Origin: Eubacteriales bacterium
Lineage (GTDB): Bacteria > Bacillota > Clostridia > Oscillospirales > QAKW01
DNA length: 64,000 nucleotides
Direction: 5' to 3'
Assembly (NCBI GenBank): GCA_045541535.1
Contig: JAZQJG010000098.1
Location: 26,981-90,980, forward strand
The position numbers and the translations under genes are program-made. The notes below the pieces were generated by a model, which saw only the letters and a list, made by a program, of their open reading frames with translations, was not told the origin of the DNA and did no database searches. Each line of letters begins with the position of its first letter. The first letter of the stretch is position 1. This document shows, piece after piece, positions 1 to 48,048 of this stretch.

Positions 1-95
1 TAATCTTCGCCAGTAACTTTGCTTTCGCCACGGGCGACTTGAATATACATCAAAAAATCACGCACGATCGGGGGGATATCCTGATATTGTTGCAT
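1..95 (-). CDS. Tyrosine recombinase/integrase, N-terminal 31 codons only (gene body lies left of the window)
   Basis: ATG at 95-93 with a GAGGTG RBS 5 nt upstream. It translates to MQQYQDIPPIVRDFLMYIQVARGESKVTGED. This fits the N-terminal core-binding (SAM-like) pattern ..L.dFL.Y....rG.S..T...Y that I recognise from clostridial tyrosine recombinases. Too short to be certain. Confidence 0.4.
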   Translation of the reverse strand, partial: MQQYQDIPPIVRDFLMYIQVARGESKVTGED

Positions 96-154
96 TATAA
101 CACCTCATTTACGGTTTGATGGTTAATGGGAGGGAGGGATATTTCGATATTGCA

Positions 155-184
155 AATTATACATAATAAATATTATGTATAATT
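155..184. other. Candidate Xer/dif-type recombination site: AATTATACATAA-TAAATA-TTATGTATAATT
   Basis: Exact 12-bp inverted arms (155-166 and 173-184) around a non-palindromic 6-bp core. The right arm matches the XerD-side arms of E. coli and B. subtilis dif at 9/11 positions (dif sequences from memory). It lies 60 bp upstream of the recombinase ATG. It could instead be an operator or promoter element. Confidence 0.4.
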
Positions 185-648
185 AAGGGGAGGGATAAAT
201 ATATAAAATTAGGTATATAAGGGCGATTTTGGCCGTTTTACTAAAACAGCACCATTTGAGTCTATTTGTAAAAGAAATCTATCATAATCCATATACTGAA
301 CTTATTTTATGATATAACTGCAGCTTGATTAATCTTTTCTGCTTAGCTTTTCGTTTTTAAAAATTAACTGCAATTTTAATATGCCTTCCTTACTATTTCT
401 CCCAAAAAAAGATCCTCTCATTTTTTTAAAATGAACTCTGCTATGTTATAAATGTTTCTATTTGATTTTGGTATCTGCTATTACTATCAAAATCGTTTTC
501 AATTCATTATATCGGTAATATTTCAAAAATCGGGTCTCCAAGTGTTATGCCCTGTGGCTCATTTCGGAATCAAACAACCTAACCGGATTCTTTCCCATTG
601 CCCTCAGGATAAGTCAACGATTAAAGAAAATCAACTATACAATTTCAA

Positions 649-665
649 AAATATTATGTATAATT
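649..665. repeat. Second copy of the 17-mer AAATATTATGTATAATT (identical to 168-184)
   Basis: Exact 17/17 direct repeat of the dif-like right arm plus 5 nt of core. The partner (left) arm is degenerate here (AACTATACAAT at 633-643, wrong spacing). Confidence 0.6.
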
Positions 666-682
666 GGAGATATGGAATACAA

Positions 683-2056
683 TTAGTTTTGCATTCCGTT
701 TCTGACAATATGAATTGCTTGGGATACCGATTTAACAGCGATAATTTCAATTCCGCTAAAAGTCTGTTTTAATACGTTTCTTCCGGGAACCATAATTCGT
801 TTGAAGCCCAGTTTTTTAGCTTCTGCAATACGCTTGTCCAAAAAACTTACAGCTCTGATCTCTCCGGACAGCCCTATCTCCCCTACTACCAACAAATCTG
901 AAGGAATTTCAAAATCAGCAAGACTGGAAGCAATTGCCATGGTAATTGCAAGATCGGCGCTGGGCTCATCAATCCGAAAACCGCCGATCACGTTTAAGTA
1001 GATATCCTGATTAAAAAGTTGATAATTGGCCCTCTTTTCCAGCACCGCCGTTAACAGATGCATTCTGTTCAGGTCAATGCCTGCCGACATTCTTCTGGGA
1101 TTGGGATATACGGTTTTGGAAACAAGGGCCTGCACCTCCGCCAAAATCGGACGGGAGCCTTCGATCAGGCAGGTGACGCAGGAGCCGGGTACGTTTTCAG
1201 GGCGGCCTTCCAAAAACATTTTGGAGGGGTTGTCCACCTCCACCAAGCCCTCAGCCGCCATATCAAATACGCCGATTTCGTTGGTAGAGCCGAAACGGTT
1301 TTTAACCGCACGCAGTAAACGGTAAGAAAGATTTTTATCTCCTTCAAAATACAGCACCGTATCTACCATATGCTCCAGCATTTTGGGGCCTGCCAAAGAT
1401 CCTTCTTTGGTAACATGACCAATAACGAAAATGGTAACGCCGTGTTCTTTTGCAAGACGCATCAGCGCCGAAGTGGATTCTTTGATTTGAGAAGCACTGC
1501 CGGGTGCATAGGAAACGTTACCGCAGGTCATGGTTTGAATGGAGTCGATAATCAGAATATCCGGTTGATGCTCCAGCACCAACTGAACGATGGTGTCCAT
1601 ATCGGTTTCGGAAATCAGTTTGATGTTCGGAGACGAAACGCCAAGACGGTTGGCACGAATCTTGATTTGACCTTTAGATTCCTCGCCGGAAACGTAATAA
1701 ACCTCTTGGGTCTGAGCAAATTTTTCACAAACCTGCAACAGTAAGGTGGATTTACCGATGCCGGGATCACCGCCAACCAACACTAATGAACCGTAAACCA
1801 GCCCACCACCCAATACACGGTCAAACTCCTTTAGGCCCGTTAAAATACGCTTGCCCGAACTCTCGCTGACCTCATTGATGGGAACCACGTCAACTTTCTT
1901 TGCAGCTGCTTTGGCGGCAGAATTTTGCACGGAAGCTTCCGTTACAATTTCTTCTTCCAGCGTACCCCATTCGCCGCAATTGGGACATTTGCCCCAAAAT
2001 TTGGCGCTCTCGTAGCCACAATTGGTACAAACAAATTTATTCTTTACCTTTGCCAT
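683..2056 (-). CDS. radA: DNA repair protein RadA/Sms
   Basis: N-terminal CxxC...CxxC zinc finger (CTNCGYES..CPNCGEWG), Walker A GDPGIGKST, KNRFG motif (AVKNRFGSTNEIGVF), Lon-protease-like C-terminal domain. Confidence 0.97.
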   Translation of the reverse strand: MAKVKNKFVCTNCGYESAKFWGKCPNCGEWGTLEEEIVTEASVQNSAAKAAAKKVDVVPINEVSESSGKRILTGLKEFDRVLGGGLVYGSLVLVGGDPGIGKSTLLLQVCEKFAQTQEVYYVSGEESKGQIKIRANRLGVSSPNIKLISETDMDTIVQLVLEHQPDILIIDSIQTMTCGNVSYAPGSASQIKESTSALMRLAKEHGVTIFVIGHVTKEGSLAGPKMLEHMVDTVLYFEGDKNLSYRLLRAVKNRFGSTNEIGVFDMAAEGLVEVDNPSKMFLEGRPENVPGSCVTCLIEGSRPILAEVQALVSKTVYPNPRRMSAGIDLNRMHLLTAVLEKRANYQLFNQDIYLNVIGGFRIDEPSADLAITMAIASSLADFEIPSDLLVVGEIGLSGEIRAVSFLDKRIAEAKKLGFKRIMVPGRNVLKQTFSGIEIIAVKSVSQAIHIVRNGMQN

Positions 2057-13189: not shown

Positions 13190-15175
13190 TTATTCAGCGT
13201 CGGTTTCCTCAGCGATGTCGCCATTGTCCTCCAGCAAAGCGCGGATGGACAGGCCAACCTTCTGCTTTTCGGTATCGATCTCAACGATCTTAACGTCAAC
13301 CTCGTCGCCAACCTTAACAACGTCGGCAGGCTTGCCGATACGCTTGTCGGACAGCTGAGAAATATGAATCAGACCGTCTACACCGTCAACGATGTTGGCA
13401 AATGCGCCGAAGGGCATCAGATTTACGATCTTAACGGTGGTAACGTCACCTTCAGCAAACTTGTCGGTGAACAGTTTGAAGGGATTGTCTTCGTCCTTTT
13501 TGTAGCCGAGAGAAACCTTCTTGTTCTCAACGTCAAGCTCTTTGATGTAAACTTCCAGAGTGTCGCCAACCTTGACAACCTCGTTGGGATGCTTGATCTT
13601 CTTCCAGCTGAGCTCGGTGATATGTACCAAGCCGTCTACGCCGCCGATGTCAACAAAAACACCGAAATTGGTGATAGATCTCTCGCTACGAACGGTACCG
13701 GTCAACTTCTGGCCAACCTCGGCGTTCGCCCAGAAAGCTTCCTGAGCCTGCTTTCTTTCAGCACTGGCAACAGCCTTCATGGAGCCGATGATCTTCTTGC
13801 GTCCGCGAACGGTGGAGAACTCAATGATGTTCAGCTTAACTTCGGTCTTCAGCAGGGTCTCAAAGTCAAAGTCACGGGGCTTTGCAGTCTGAGACATGGG
13901 AACGAACACACGTACGCCGTATACAGAAACTGTCAGACCGCCGTTGTTAACGCCGGTTACGACACCTTCAACAACTTCCTTTTCATTCATTGCGGCCTCA
14001 ATCTTCTCAAAGCCTGCAAGGGCGTCCAGTTTCTTCTTGGACAAAGCGATCGTACCTTCTACGTCGCTGACTCTCAATACGATAGCGTCAAACTCGTCGC
14101 CGACTTTGACGGCAGTCTCCAGATCCACGGCAGGATCCGAAGAGAAATTGTCTCTGGTAATGAAGCCGGATTGTTTGGCCCCCAGTTCTACCTTGATTTC
14201 AGTAGGAGTAACACCTACTACAACAACCTTTACACGCTCACCGGTGGTAATGGTCTTGCAGGAATCCTCCAGCATTTCGGCAAAGGTCATTTCGCCAACT
14301 TCCGCTACATTTTTCGTCTCTTCTGACATTGTTTCTTTTACCTCCTCAATTACACAGTCCGGTGTTGAAGCACCGGCTGTGATACCGATCAAATTGAATT
14401 TTTTTATAGTTTCGATCGGTAGTTCGCCGGCCGACTCAATCAAAAAAGAATTCGGACACACTGCCTGCGCTATGTGATAAAGCTTGTTTGTATTGGAGCT
14501 TTGCTTGCCGCCAACCACAAAAAAAGCGTCACATTTTGCAGCCAATCGGCCGCATTCTTCCTGTCTTAAATCGGTAGCATTACAGATTGTATCATATATT
14601 ATTGAATTTTTAAAGGTTTTTTTGATAATTTTTTCACATTTTTTAAATTCTTTTACGGAAAAAGTAGTTTGCCAAACTACATCCACAAACAAATTCTCGG
14701 AATGTGTAAAATTTTTGGTGATTTTTTCAAGTCCTTCCGCATCCCGAAAGACCAGACATCGCTCCGGATGGGCAAAACTACGAATCCCCATCACCTCGGG
14801 ATGACCTTCATCCCCACCGATAAGTACCCAATGATCACCCTCAGCCACTCGCTCAACAATCCGATGGATCTTGGCCACAAAGGGACAGGTTGTGTCAATT
14901 ACTTTACCGGCTTTTTGGTCCAGTAAAAGATAATCTTCCTTGGTGATTCCGTGAGCACGCACCACGGCAACGGCTCCTTCCGGAAGATCGGCGGGTGAAT
15001 CCACAATTTTTACCCCTCTTTCCCCCATCCGTGCAATAATCTGGGGATTATGGATAATCGGACCGATGGTGCAAATTTTTTCATTGTGCTCCTCAATTGC
15101 CTTTTCCAAAAGATTTACAGCACGCTCTACGCCAAAACAAAATCCCGCACTTTTTGCTACGATTATCTTCATCAT
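13190..15175 (-). CDS. ispH: Fusion protein: 4-hydroxy-3-methylbut-2-enyl diphosphate reductase (IspH/LytB) + four S1 RNA-binding domains (RpsA-like)
   Basis: N-terminal LytB region (GFCFGVERAV, conserved Cys). From about aa 290 there are repeated S1 motifs (e.g. GTVRSERSITNFGVFVDIGGVDGLVHITELS). It sits downstream of cmk, as rpsA/ypfD does in other bacteria. Confidence 0.93.
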   Translation of the reverse strand: MMKIIVAKSAGFCFGVERAVNLLEKAIEEHNEKICTIGPIIHNPQIIARMGERGVKIVDSPADLPEGAVAVVRAHGITKEDYLLLDQKAGKVIDTTCPFVAKIHRIVERVAEGDHWVLIGGDEGHPEVMGIRSFAHPERCLVFRDAEGLEKITKNFTHSENLFVDVVWQTTFSVKEFKKCEKIIKKTFKNSIIYDTICNATDLRQEECGRLAAKCDAFFVVGGKQSSNTNKLYHIAQAVCPNSFLIESAGELPIETIKKFNLIGITAGASTPDCVIEEVKETMSEETKNVAEVGEMTFAEMLEDSCKTITTGERVKVVVVGVTPTEIKVELGAKQSGFITRDNFSSDPAVDLETAVKVGDEFDAIVLRVSDVEGTIALSKKKLDALAGFEKIEAAMNEKEVVEGVVTGVNNGGLTVSVYGVRVFVPMSQTAKPRDFDFETLLKTEVKLNIIEFSTVRGRKKIIGSMKAVASAERKQAQEAFWANAEVGQKLTGTVRSERSITNFGVFVDIGGVDGLVHITELSWKKIKHPNEVVKVGDTLEVYIKELDVENKKVSLGYKKDEDNPFKLFTDKFAEGDVTTVKIVNLMPFGAFANIVDGVDGLIHISQLSDKRIGKPADVVKVGDEVDVKIVEIDTEKQKVGLSIRALLEDNGDIAEETDAE

Positions 15176-22305: not shown

Positions 22306-22338
22306 GAGTATACGGCCTCACGGCGAGGCCGTATACTC
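22306..22338. other. Perfect 14-bp GC-rich hairpin without a U-tract between pfkA and tRNA-Val
   Basis: GAGTATACGGCCTC-ACGGC-GAGGCCGTATACTC, 7 nt after the pfkA stop. Confidence 0.7.
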
Positions 22339-40140: not shown

Positions 40141-40175
40141 ACATTAAAAAAGCAAAGCGGTTACGCTTTGCTTTT
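40141..40175 (-). terminator. Rho-independent terminator after thiT (stem spans the stop codon)
   Basis: AAAAGCAAAGCG-GTTA-CGCTTTGCTTTT, with TTTTTT on the minus strand. Confidence 0.8.
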
Positions 40176-40980: not shown

Positions 40981-41016
40981 CAAAAAATCCTATGCGCCGA
41001 TAATGGCGCATAGGAT
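40981..41016 (-). terminator. Riboswitch expression-platform terminator
   Basis: 12-bp stem ATCCTATGCGCC/GGCGCATAGGAT followed by TTTTTT on the minus strand, between the TPP aptamer and the thiT RBS. Confidence 0.85.
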
Positions 41017-47124: not shown

Positions 47125-48048
47125 TCAGTTCCTTTCAACAATATCAATTGCCTGTTGTAGTATAGTTTCAAATTCACTTTCACGGGAAATATCAATCCAA
47201 TGAATTGCCTCGTTTCGTTTAAACCAGGTGATCTGTCGCTTTGCATAACGGCGAGAATTTTGCTTGATGGCTTCCACCGCCTCTTCCAAGGTGACCTTAC
47301 CGCCCAAATACTGCAAAATCTCTTTATATCCAATGCCTGCGGCCGCGGTTGAGTTAGAAAAGCCGGGTAAAGATTTCAAAGATAAAACCTCTTCTAACAA
47401 CCCGTTATCCATCATAAGATCCACTCTCTTATTGATACGCTCGTACAAATAATTCCGATCAATAAAATTAAGGCCGATCATAATAGCCGGCAAGGGTGAG
47501 CTGTTTACGTGACTCTGCTCTTCCCAATACAAAATGCTCTTGCCGGTCAGCAAAACAATTTCAAGGGCACGAACGATGCGTTTTTTATCGTTTACATGTA
47601 ATCGTTGGGAGGCTTTGGGGTCTAAATCACGTAAACGTTCCAACAAAACTTCGCCTGTCAACCCATTTAGCTCTTCTCTTAAATCGGCGTCGGCCGGCAT
47701 ATCGGCAAACTGTGTATCCTGAATCAAATGATCCACGTACAGTCCCGTTCCACCCGCCAAAATACAATAGCGATCACGGGCGGCTACGTCATCTACACAT
47801 TGTCTGGCCATAGTCACAAAGCGTTGAACACTACAGTTTTCCCAAGGCATCAAAACGTCTATCATATGATGCGGAACGCCCTGCATCTCCGATTTCGTCA
47901 CCTTGGCTGTTCCGACATCCATATTTTTGTATAATTGCATAGAATCAACGGAAACAATTTCTCCATCGTAATGCTTGGCCAGAGCGACCGATAAAGCAGT
48001 TTTGCCGGAAGCCGTCGGGCCGATCACTGAAATGATCTTGCTCATCAC
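47125..48048 (-). CDS. miaA: tRNA dimethylallyltransferase
   Basis: P-loop VIGPTASGKTALS and the full-length MiaA pattern. Confidence 0.96.
   Translation of the reverse strand: MMSKIISVIGPTASGKTALSVALAKHYDGEIVSVDSMQLYKNMDVGTAKVTKSEMQGVPHHMIDVLMPWENCSVQRFVTMARQCVDDVAARDRYCILAGGTGLYVDHLIQDTQFADMPADADLREELNGLTGEVLLERLRDLDPKASQRLHVNDKKRIVRALEIVLLTGKSILYWEEQSHVNSSPLPAIMIGLNFIDRNYLYERINKRVDLMMDNGLLEEVLSLKSLPGFSNSTAAAGIGYKEILQYLGGKVTLEEAVEAIKQNSRRYAKRQITWFKRNEAIHWIDISRESEFETILQQAIDIVERN

Follow-up and report, generated by a model that had tools for sequence, protein, structure and literature searches.

A palindrome at positions 155–184 of the stretch analysed here, 64,000 nucleotides of contig JAZQJG010000098.1 from Eubacteriales bacterium (hereafter the window), is in our assessment, with a probability of about 0.85, a chromosomal dif site where the two replication arms meet, lying directly upstream of its cognate recombinase gene xer, the 330-aa product of which is called XerC in the databases. 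The evidence comes from the architecture and rarity of the palindrome, its conservation beside xer in related species, its position at a switch in strand composition, and the presence in relatives of elements inserted exactly at the site. Coordinates of all features are collected in Table 1.

The dif-type site and its sequence

Sites of the dif type are non-coding and about 28–31 bp long, with a centre of 6–8 bp between inverted arms of about 11 bp each. The palindrome has this geometry (12-6-12) and lies in non-coding DNA between radA and xer. Its arms, AATTATACATAA and TTATGTATAATT, are exact reverse complements around the centre TAAATA, as the earlier note on this DNA had stated, and the symmetry reaches even further, to 14-2-14 (155–168/171–184). 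The arm 12-mer is present in three exact copies in the 64 kb (at 155, 173 and 654), where 0.48 would be expected even with one mismatch allowed, and perfect inverted repeats with arms of at least 12 and a gap of at most 8 are found at four places in the window against 0.15 expected. The remaining three are G+C-rich and resemble terminator hairpins, and the counts within the 64-kb window gave no sign of the many equally good AT-rich palindromes that the earlier note had named as grounds for doubt. The arm matches the XerD-side arm of E. coli dif at 9/11 positions. The same score is reached against the XerD-side arm of Bacillales-type dif, ACTTCCTATAATATATATTATGTAAACT, as printed for Staphylococcus aureus in the supplement of Kono et al., so that the likeness pointed out in the earlier note holds against a published sequence.

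Table 1. Features of the window and of related loci. Positions without a locus handle are those of the window.
Feature	Position	Strand	Remarks
dif-linked Xer-family tyrosine recombinase gene, 5' end	1..95	-	31 codons, ATG at 95–93; full protein 330 aa
xer leader	96..154	-	Ribosome-binding site GAGGTG (complement of 101–106) and C-rich tract, sense strand
dif-type site	155–184	.	Arm 155–166, asymmetric centre 167–172, arm 173–184
G-rich flank AAGGGGAGGG	185–194	+	One side of the site only; overlooked in the earlier note
Non-coding DNA between copies	195..632	.	About 440 nt, one conserved block at about 402–469
Defective second copy	633–665	.	Degenerate arm 633–644, 9-bp spacer 645–653, intact arm 654–665
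radA	683..2056	-	Last gene of the co-oriented minus-strand run; identity taken in part from Pfam matches of its L088 orthologue
Other perfect inverted repeats (arms of at least 12)	22307–22337, 40148–40175, 40987–41016		G+C-rich, terminator-stem-like, unrelated to the dif palindrome
Inovirus-like prophages	L027 6019–11421; L028 14585–20901		5.3 kb and 6.3 kb; bounded by hybrid and full copy
Other insert	L049 14585–19008; also L031 4728		4.4 kb; Rep_1 plasmid-type replication gene and 172-aa tyrosine-recombinase/integrase fragment

The exact 30-mer had no match in JGI metagenome contigs, and a search of IMG/VR with the 17-mer of one arm plus centre returned 74 matches, all of them unrelated AT-rich DNA, including the palindrome-like L118.

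The linked xer gene

The palindrome lies 60 nt upstream of xer, a minus-strand gene cut off by the edge of the window. The ATG at 95 opens MQQYQDIPPIVRDFLMYIQVARGESKVTGED, which is identical to the N terminus of P0002, a Xer-family recombinase of 330 aa encoded on the sister contig L088. This contig was reached via the Xer protein and, across ligA-gatB-radA, matches the window at 96.7% identity; an exact-protein look-up for the RadA of the window gave no record. The complete Xer-type protein found there bears out the earlier assignment of the truncated gene as a tyrosine recombinase. The leader is identical in L088 and partly conserved in the related loci L167 and L001, the latter being the orthologous locus of the nearest GTDB species (RadA 86% identical). 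Two internal likenesses, both identical in L088, were also recorded in this region: the coding start of xer, GGGGGGATATCCTGATATTG, resembles part of its own leader (70–89 against 133–152, 80% identity), and the leader holds a degenerate copy, ATGGTTAATGGGAGGGAGGGATA, of one arm and the G-rich flank (119–141 against 175–197, 74% identity).

The motifs RLSEL, GKGNKQR, HKLRH and LGH..IYTH, which we take to be the full catalytic set, are present in P0002, and the Xer orthologue of L001 contains the Pfam domains Phage_integrase and SAM_1 (SAM-like). The best NCBIfam model for this orthologue is XerC (TIGR02224), on which it scores 228.5 bits, below the cut-off of 335.15; it likewise falls below the cut-offs of XerD (TIGR02225; 209 against 329.6 bits), archaeal XerA (NF040815; 193.7 against 220) and XerS (NF003462; 149.7 against 267). 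Among solved structures, the linked protein matches E. coli XerD (E=5e-35) and archaeal XerA best. Its family, of over 8000 members, bears the NCBI name ‘tyrosine recombinase XerC’.

Conservation in related species

A RadA-anchored scan with one genome per species gave 80 loci from uncultured Eubacteriales, Caproiciproducens, Faecalispora, ‘Clostridium’ merdae and minihomine, Bittarella and others. In 39 of these 80, AATTATACAAAAT-N3-5-ATTTTGTATAATT was found a few kb downstream of radA, while a second clade (clade II) has the variant AACTGCACAAAAT-N4-ATTTTGTGCAGTT and single loci have others (beginning AATCGCGCTAAAT in L066 and AACGCAACAAAAT in L062), all upstream of xer orthologues. Contigs that were reached independently, via the protein, carry the site in a Ruminococcus sp., where it again precedes xer by 60 nt, and in an Acetivibrio sp. 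The shared palindrome, AAyTrnnCAAAAT-N4-ATTTTGnnyArTT, is present in about 50 related Oscillospirales and Acetivibrio loci, 49 sites of which were aligned, and the question raised earlier of whether orthologous loci retain it can thus be answered in the affirmative for about 50 species. The genes around it vary (a sulfatase in L001, efflux genes in L030, cohesin/PilZ genes in L089), yet the site is kept, as would be expected of a dif. Full copies number one per fetched locus, and the window has one full and one defective copy in its 64 kb.

In nearly every site-bearing locus with enough flank, xer begins 55–700 nt from the site and points away from it, so that the placing directly upstream of a recombinase gene, for which the earlier note had drawn the comparison with xerS, extends from the 60 nt of the window to its relatives. 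The exception to close linkage is the Acetivibrio sp., in which an identical site lies 5.9 kb from xer; elsewhere the genetic linkage of dif and xer is that of single-recombinase Xer systems. Most species have a TTGACA-N17-TAtAAT promoter that extends into the initial bases of the site and is directed through it towards xer.

Two side observations concern the palindrome as a sequence. A lone TTTTGTATAATT at 47925–47936 of the window equals the consensus arm of the larger clade, apparently inside coding sequence and without a partner arm. In L078 (2716–2808) the flanks of the palindrome are mutually reverse-complementary and the contig ends in the Illumina adapter agatcggaagagcgtcgtgtagggaaagagtgt, an assembly fold-back artefact.

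In the literature searched, by keyword and by arm sequence, we came across no account of this site, and we take it to be a new form of a known kind of element, dif.

Position at the replication terminus

All 44 non-overlapping open reading frames (ORFs) of at least 200 aa in the window are on the minus strand and the plus-strand GC skew is negative throughout, in agreement with the earlier observation that the site stands at the downstream end of a co-oriented minus-strand run. The switch itself is seen in relatives. Among the 26 testable loci, i.e. those with at least 3 kb on both sides of the site, the skew to the left of the site is positive in 25 and that to the right negative in 24 (means +0.083 and −0.068), and the coding-strand bias flips at the site along with the skew; the check that had been proposed, whether the change in skew and gene orientation falls at this site, therefore came out positive in relatives. 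Right-side skew is also negative in 10 of the 12 loci with clade-II or other variant sites and a usable right flank, and in L091 the skew passes from +0.073 to −0.117 across the site. The gene order of L088 runs radA(+), xer(+) and then DUF624, XerD, SpoIIM, DUF3792 and YajC, all minus, so that genes switch from plus to minus directly after xer, and the skew reaches −0.136 by 13.5 kb. In two complete chromosomes the site is found at 51.7% and 45.6% of the record. The terminus position that is characteristic of dif is thus found in relatives, the window itself showing only the approach to the switch.

Elements inserted at the site

L027 and L028 each have a partial copy, made up of one arm plus centre before the sequence diverges, which precedes the full site by 5.3 and 6.3 kb respectively, and the junctions fall at the border of centre and arm. 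The intervening elements encode a Zot/pI assembly ATPase (PF05707) and a rolling-circle Rep (PF23343 or PF02486), with no integrase homologue even at E<=1, and the same junctions appear in IMG/VR as viral contigs (L081, L082). Lacking an integrase of their own and seated at dif, with a partial copy at one end and a full copy at the other, the elements have the features of integrative mobile elements exploiting Xer (IMEX), and their layout is that of integrase-less filamentous phages that exploit Xer, such as CTXphi and XacF1. The element end next to the full copy repeats the TTGACA promoter-like flank, so that the downstream xer keeps a promoter after insertion. The inserts of L049 and L031 are of another kind (Table 1). 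That of L049 has a G+C content of 52.5% against 44%, and in the hybrid site of these two loci the spacer is longer by 3 nt (AATTATACAAAATGAATAGAGTTTTGTATAATC) and the hairpin cgcgcgggggtaaccccgcgcg comes next.

These junctions suggest that recombination has happened at the site. The earlier note had asked whether the palindrome resolves dimers or serves for attachment, and the outcome is both, a site that behaves as the chromosomal dif and at which prophages have inserted in relatives. A 2023 paper on Enterocloster inoviruses reported flanking direct repeats alone; the present loci show the chromosomal seat of integrase-less inovirus prophages in relatives and suggest their route of entry.

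The second copy and the spacer

Beside radA, 18 nt from its stop codon, the window carries a defective second copy that reads AACTATACAATT-TCAAAAATA-TTATGTATAATT in direct orientation with the full site. The 17-mer AAATATTATGTATAATT at 649–665 is the same as 168–184, i.e. one arm plus centre, a repeat overlooked in the earlier note. L088 and L167 share this layout, and in a three-way alignment with the window the 18-mer AATTATACATAATATTTT (plus-strand 648–665) is the same in all three, whereas decay is seen in its flanks and in the other arm. The same alignment shows two further conserved islands, the full site with its flank and a block of about 70 nt at 402–469 (complement AAATCAAATAGAAA...AACATAGCAGAGTTCATTTTAAAAAAATGAGAGGATCTTTTTTT), which has no conserved ORF and no Rfam match. 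Otherwise, identity to L088 over the segment 195–632 drops to 82%, with indels, from the 96.7% of the flanking genes, a divergence at roughly the neutral rate. It contains no ORF of note and no Rfam match, the search of 1–900 having given a chance-level match only. Neither BLASTN and TBLASTX of the 466-nt segment 185–650 against all fetched loci nor a related search against 74 viral contigs found a homologue; considered as a possible IMEX of the window itself, 195–632 showed no genes or homologues.

The second copy is most likely a scar, now fixed, that an old insertion left at dif. Its spacer is of 9 bp and that of the full site of 6 bp, and this inequality should prevent excision, so that the two copies would be unable to recombine with each other. 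The 9-bp spacer is also reminiscent of the hybrid site of L049 and L031. The persistence of the half site while its surroundings decay suggests that it may still be bound.

The one-sided flank and the polarity of the site

When the 49 aligned sites are compared, nAGGGGAGG follows the same arm in nearly all, regardless of the sequence or gene beyond, and when the sites are oriented by this flank the centre is purine-rich on a constant strand (TGAATA, TAAATA and similar). Since flank and centre keep a fixed relative orientation across sites, the unit has polarity despite its identical arms. With respect to xer, site and flank together face the other way in the window, L001, L088 and clade II. 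The flank in the window, GGGGAGGG, also fits the pattern GGGNAGGG of the E. coli FtsK-orienting polar sequences (KOPS). On the question of whether it is an FtsK-orienting word of the KOPS/SRS type, AGGGGAG is found nine times on one strand of the window and not at all on the other, a count confounded by the location of all genes on one strand; the word behaves like a ribosome-binding motif.

Arm symmetry and the acting recombinase

When the two arms are treated as a helix, both sides have changed at 8 of 13 positions and 96.9% of cells are complementary, a value reached by 0 of 500 shuffles, although the sites were partly chosen for symmetry and the figure is therefore inflated. Between clades, ATAC/GTAT, GCAC/GTGC, AGTC/GACT, ATAG/CTAT and GCGC/GCGC swap in both arms at once. 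Given this joint change across clades and the identity of the arms, a single protein most likely reads the two; such joint changes would be predicted of one DNA-reading protein and not of distinct XerC and XerD arms. We lean, slightly beyond even odds, towards the linked Xer acting as a homotetramer; its acting together with the neighbouring XerD is appreciably less probable. The earlier proposal that a single recombinase binds both halves is thus supported indirectly, by the co-variation of the arms, and weakened by the presence of a canonical XerD nearby and by the name XerC given to the linked family.

The neighbouring protein, of 299 aa and encoded in a spoIIM-xerD arrangement, scores 321.7 bits on the XerD model (cut-off 329.6), a near-equivalog, and passes the PRK00283/NF001399 subfamily model (302.9 against 279). 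Direct repeats of TTATGTAAAC(T), a canonical Firmicutes XerD half-site, are found in clusters of 2–5 spaced 14–23 nt apart at 13210–13360 of L088 and 18249–18310 of L030, and also in L024, L032, L033, L038, L040, L042, L044, L047, L048, L052, L065, L068, L069, L071 and L080. In L030 and L088, which were examined in detail, the clusters are intergenic, upstream of the (proC-)spoIIM-xerD operon and 3.4–3.7 kb from the palindrome. These repeats may be putative XerD-binding half-sites, either XDS-like or autoregulatory, for which the XerD/XDS sites of B. subtilis, involved in unloading of the SMC complex, offer a comparison (review PMC11894783). If XerD binds them, it would keep a specificity other than that for the dif arms. 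As a candidate for a canonical B. subtilis-type dif near the site we considered TTATGTAAACT, which was rejected, as it occurs in direct repeats only and has no inverted partner at 6-bp spacing; the rival dif that the earlier note had allowed for was accordingly not encountered there.

Alternative explanations and proposed mechanism

Several points weigh against reading 155–184 as a terminus dif served by the linked Xer. The skew switch lies beyond the left end of the window and is seen in the sister and related contigs only. The positions in the two complete chromosomes presume records starting near the origin. Copy number is known from the 64-kb window and the fetched loci, as opposed to whole genomes, and the choice of sites bears on the symmetry figure as mentioned above. 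The evidence bearing on Xer recombination under FtsK control is indirect, namely the insertion junctions at the centre/arm border, and the role of the site is proposed from sequence. Finally, each arm resembles the Firmicutes XerD arm at 9/11 positions, and a canonical XerD gene lies 1–4 kb from the site in most loci where one is seen.

The last two points belong to the foremost alternative, an ordinary two-recombinase dif at which the linked protein would be the clostridial XerC on one arm and FtsK-activated XerD would occupy the other. Near-equivalog XerD is encoded 0.02–2.4 kb beyond xer (about 0.8 kb in the lineage of the window) and is convergent with it in most loci, and this proximity means that a two-recombinase mechanism has to be entertained and that one with a single recombinase is not demonstrable. 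Moreover, NCBI names the linked family XerC, xerC genes tend to be near dif (Kono et al.), and both proteins appear to retain their catalytic residues. Against this, the arms are identical and change together at the very outer positions that separate known XerC from XerD arms, and the linked protein falls below the cut-offs of both XerC (228.5 against 335) and XerD (209 against 330). The TTATGTAAAC clusters upstream of the xerD operon hint at a different specificity of XerD, and L091 has no XerD within 10 kb of the site. We therefore regard the two-recombinase explanation as rather unlikely, although it is much the strongest of the competitors.

A second alternative is that the palindrome is a mere operator or promoter of the recombinase gene, formed by two back-to-back TATAAT boxes, the true dif being elsewhere. 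There is a TATAAT in each arm, the promoter overlapping the start of the site in most relatives is directed at xer, and the site is nearly always near that gene. However, prophages and a plasmid-like element have inserted exactly at the site with a junction at the centre/arm border, the identical Acetivibrio site is far from xer, and the site stays conserved where its orientation to xer is reversed, as it is in the window, L001 and clade II. A promoter and terminator scan of 1–1000 called sites no more commonly than in shuffles and made no call at 155–184. An operator role alone is very improbable, but operator and dif roles may coexist.

Two further explanations are less probable still. We rejected an invertible or excisable cassette, in which the recombinase would flip or delete the 483 nt between 143–168 and 652–677 as a phase-variation or dif module: a 26-nt inverted repeat (85% complementary) does flank this segment beside a tyrosine recombinase gene and the half site is invariant in three relatives, but the spacers differ (6 against 9 bp), one arm is decayed (absent in L167), the asymmetric centres are direct rather than inverted, all three assemblies show the segment the same way round, and it contains no recognisable gene. 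The notion that the palindrome is the attachment site of a mobile element with its own integrase, recombinase and palindrome being cargo rather than core genome, recalls the resemblance of a site with an adjacent recombinase to an integration module, as noted for difSL-xerS, but is highly improbable given the housekeeping synteny (radA ... xer/xerD-spoIIM) at the strand switch in dozens of species of at least two orders and the lack of element borders or cargo genes around the module.

Our working model for the chromosomal dif is as follows; binding, catalysis, control by FtsK, autoregulation and the acting recombinase are all matters that we infer from sequence. Recombinase monomers would bind both identical 12–13-bp arms on each of two sister sites, and strand exchange would take place at the borders of the 6-bp centre TAAATA, turning a chromosome dimer into monomers at cell division. 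Polarity would be supplied by the asymmetric centre together with the one-sided G-rich flank. A bound site would probably repress xer, because it lies between the xer promoter and start codon in most species or, in the lineage of the window, holds the only TATAAT.

Relation to known Xer systems

Several known systems invite comparison. XerS/difSL of streptococci and lactococci is likewise found in Firmicutes, and its dif directly precedes the recombinase gene, the two forming one module at the terminus. The arms of difSL are unequal. It is 31 bp long, whereas the present site has identical arms and a 6-bp centre and is accompanied by an apparently catalytically intact XerD, and the linked protein is far below the cut-off of the XerS model (149.7 against 267 bits). 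XerL/dif of Legionellales shares the long, uninterrupted and perfect inverted-repeat arms, an unusual feature among dif sites (mBio 2022, PMC9765430), and there too a mobile element with a mimic of the site reveals it; xerL, however, is separated from dif by over 400 kb or carried by a plasmid (PMC9765430), against 60 nt here, and phylum and recombinase lineage differ. XerH/difH of Helicobacter and Campylobacter likewise has dif near xer and near-palindromic arms, but the arms of difH have partial dyad symmetry only (PMC9765430) and the linked protein is only weakly similar to XerH (PDB 5jjv, E=8e-16, against 5e-35 for XerD). The archaeal XerA/dif system has a single recombinase, and it is the XerA model on which the linked protein comes nearest to a cut-off (193.7 of 220 bits), with matches to PDB 4a8e (E=4e-33) and 5hxy (E=7e-29). 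The lineage here is bacterial, though, and the neighbouring XerD scores 199.9 on the same model; the XerA score therefore does not discriminate.

With the classical XerC/XerD-dif of E. coli (CodV/RipX of B. subtilis) the site shares its dimensions (11-6-11 to 12-6-12), the inner arm TTATG, the terminus position, the 9/11 agreement with the XerD arm, the XerD orthologue in its spoIIM-xerD arrangement and the integrase-less filamentous phages. It differs in having no distinct XerC and XerD arms, in a linked protein below both equivalog cut-offs, in the fusion of the site to the xer promoter or leader, and in the one-sided G-rich flank.

Significance

Little is well defined about clostridial dif sites. 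Of the three Firmicutes for which the survey of Kono et al. failed, two were Clostridium genomes, and two of its Clostridium dif predictions are placed about 175 degrees from the skew shift point. A conserved and searchable 30-mer at the terminus offers an anchor with which to orient and close metagenome-assembled genomes of abundant gut and rumen anaerobes. The occurrence of a dif-linked Xer alongside a retained XerD in the same genomes also provides a natural comparison, and an identical-arm Xer site raises the question of how the order of strand exchange is set, for which centre and G-rich flank are short, mutable candidates.

Taken in its full form, our proposal is of an undescribed one-recombinase Xer system in many gut and rumen Clostridia (Oscillospirales and at least some Acetivibrio), in which an XerC-like homotetramer acts on a symmetric dif that is also its own operator, XerD is freed, and phages have a point of entry. 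We put this forward tentatively, judging the odds to be somewhat short of even. If it is true, a perfectly symmetric dif would owe its polarity to its centre and to the G-rich flank on one side, and the site would also serve xer as operator. XerD would be free for another role at the terminus, e.g. binding the TTATGTAAAC clusters by its own operon, as XerD does at XDS in B. subtilis, and the first Xer-exploiting filamentous phages to be recognised in Gram-positive anaerobes would enter the chromosome here.

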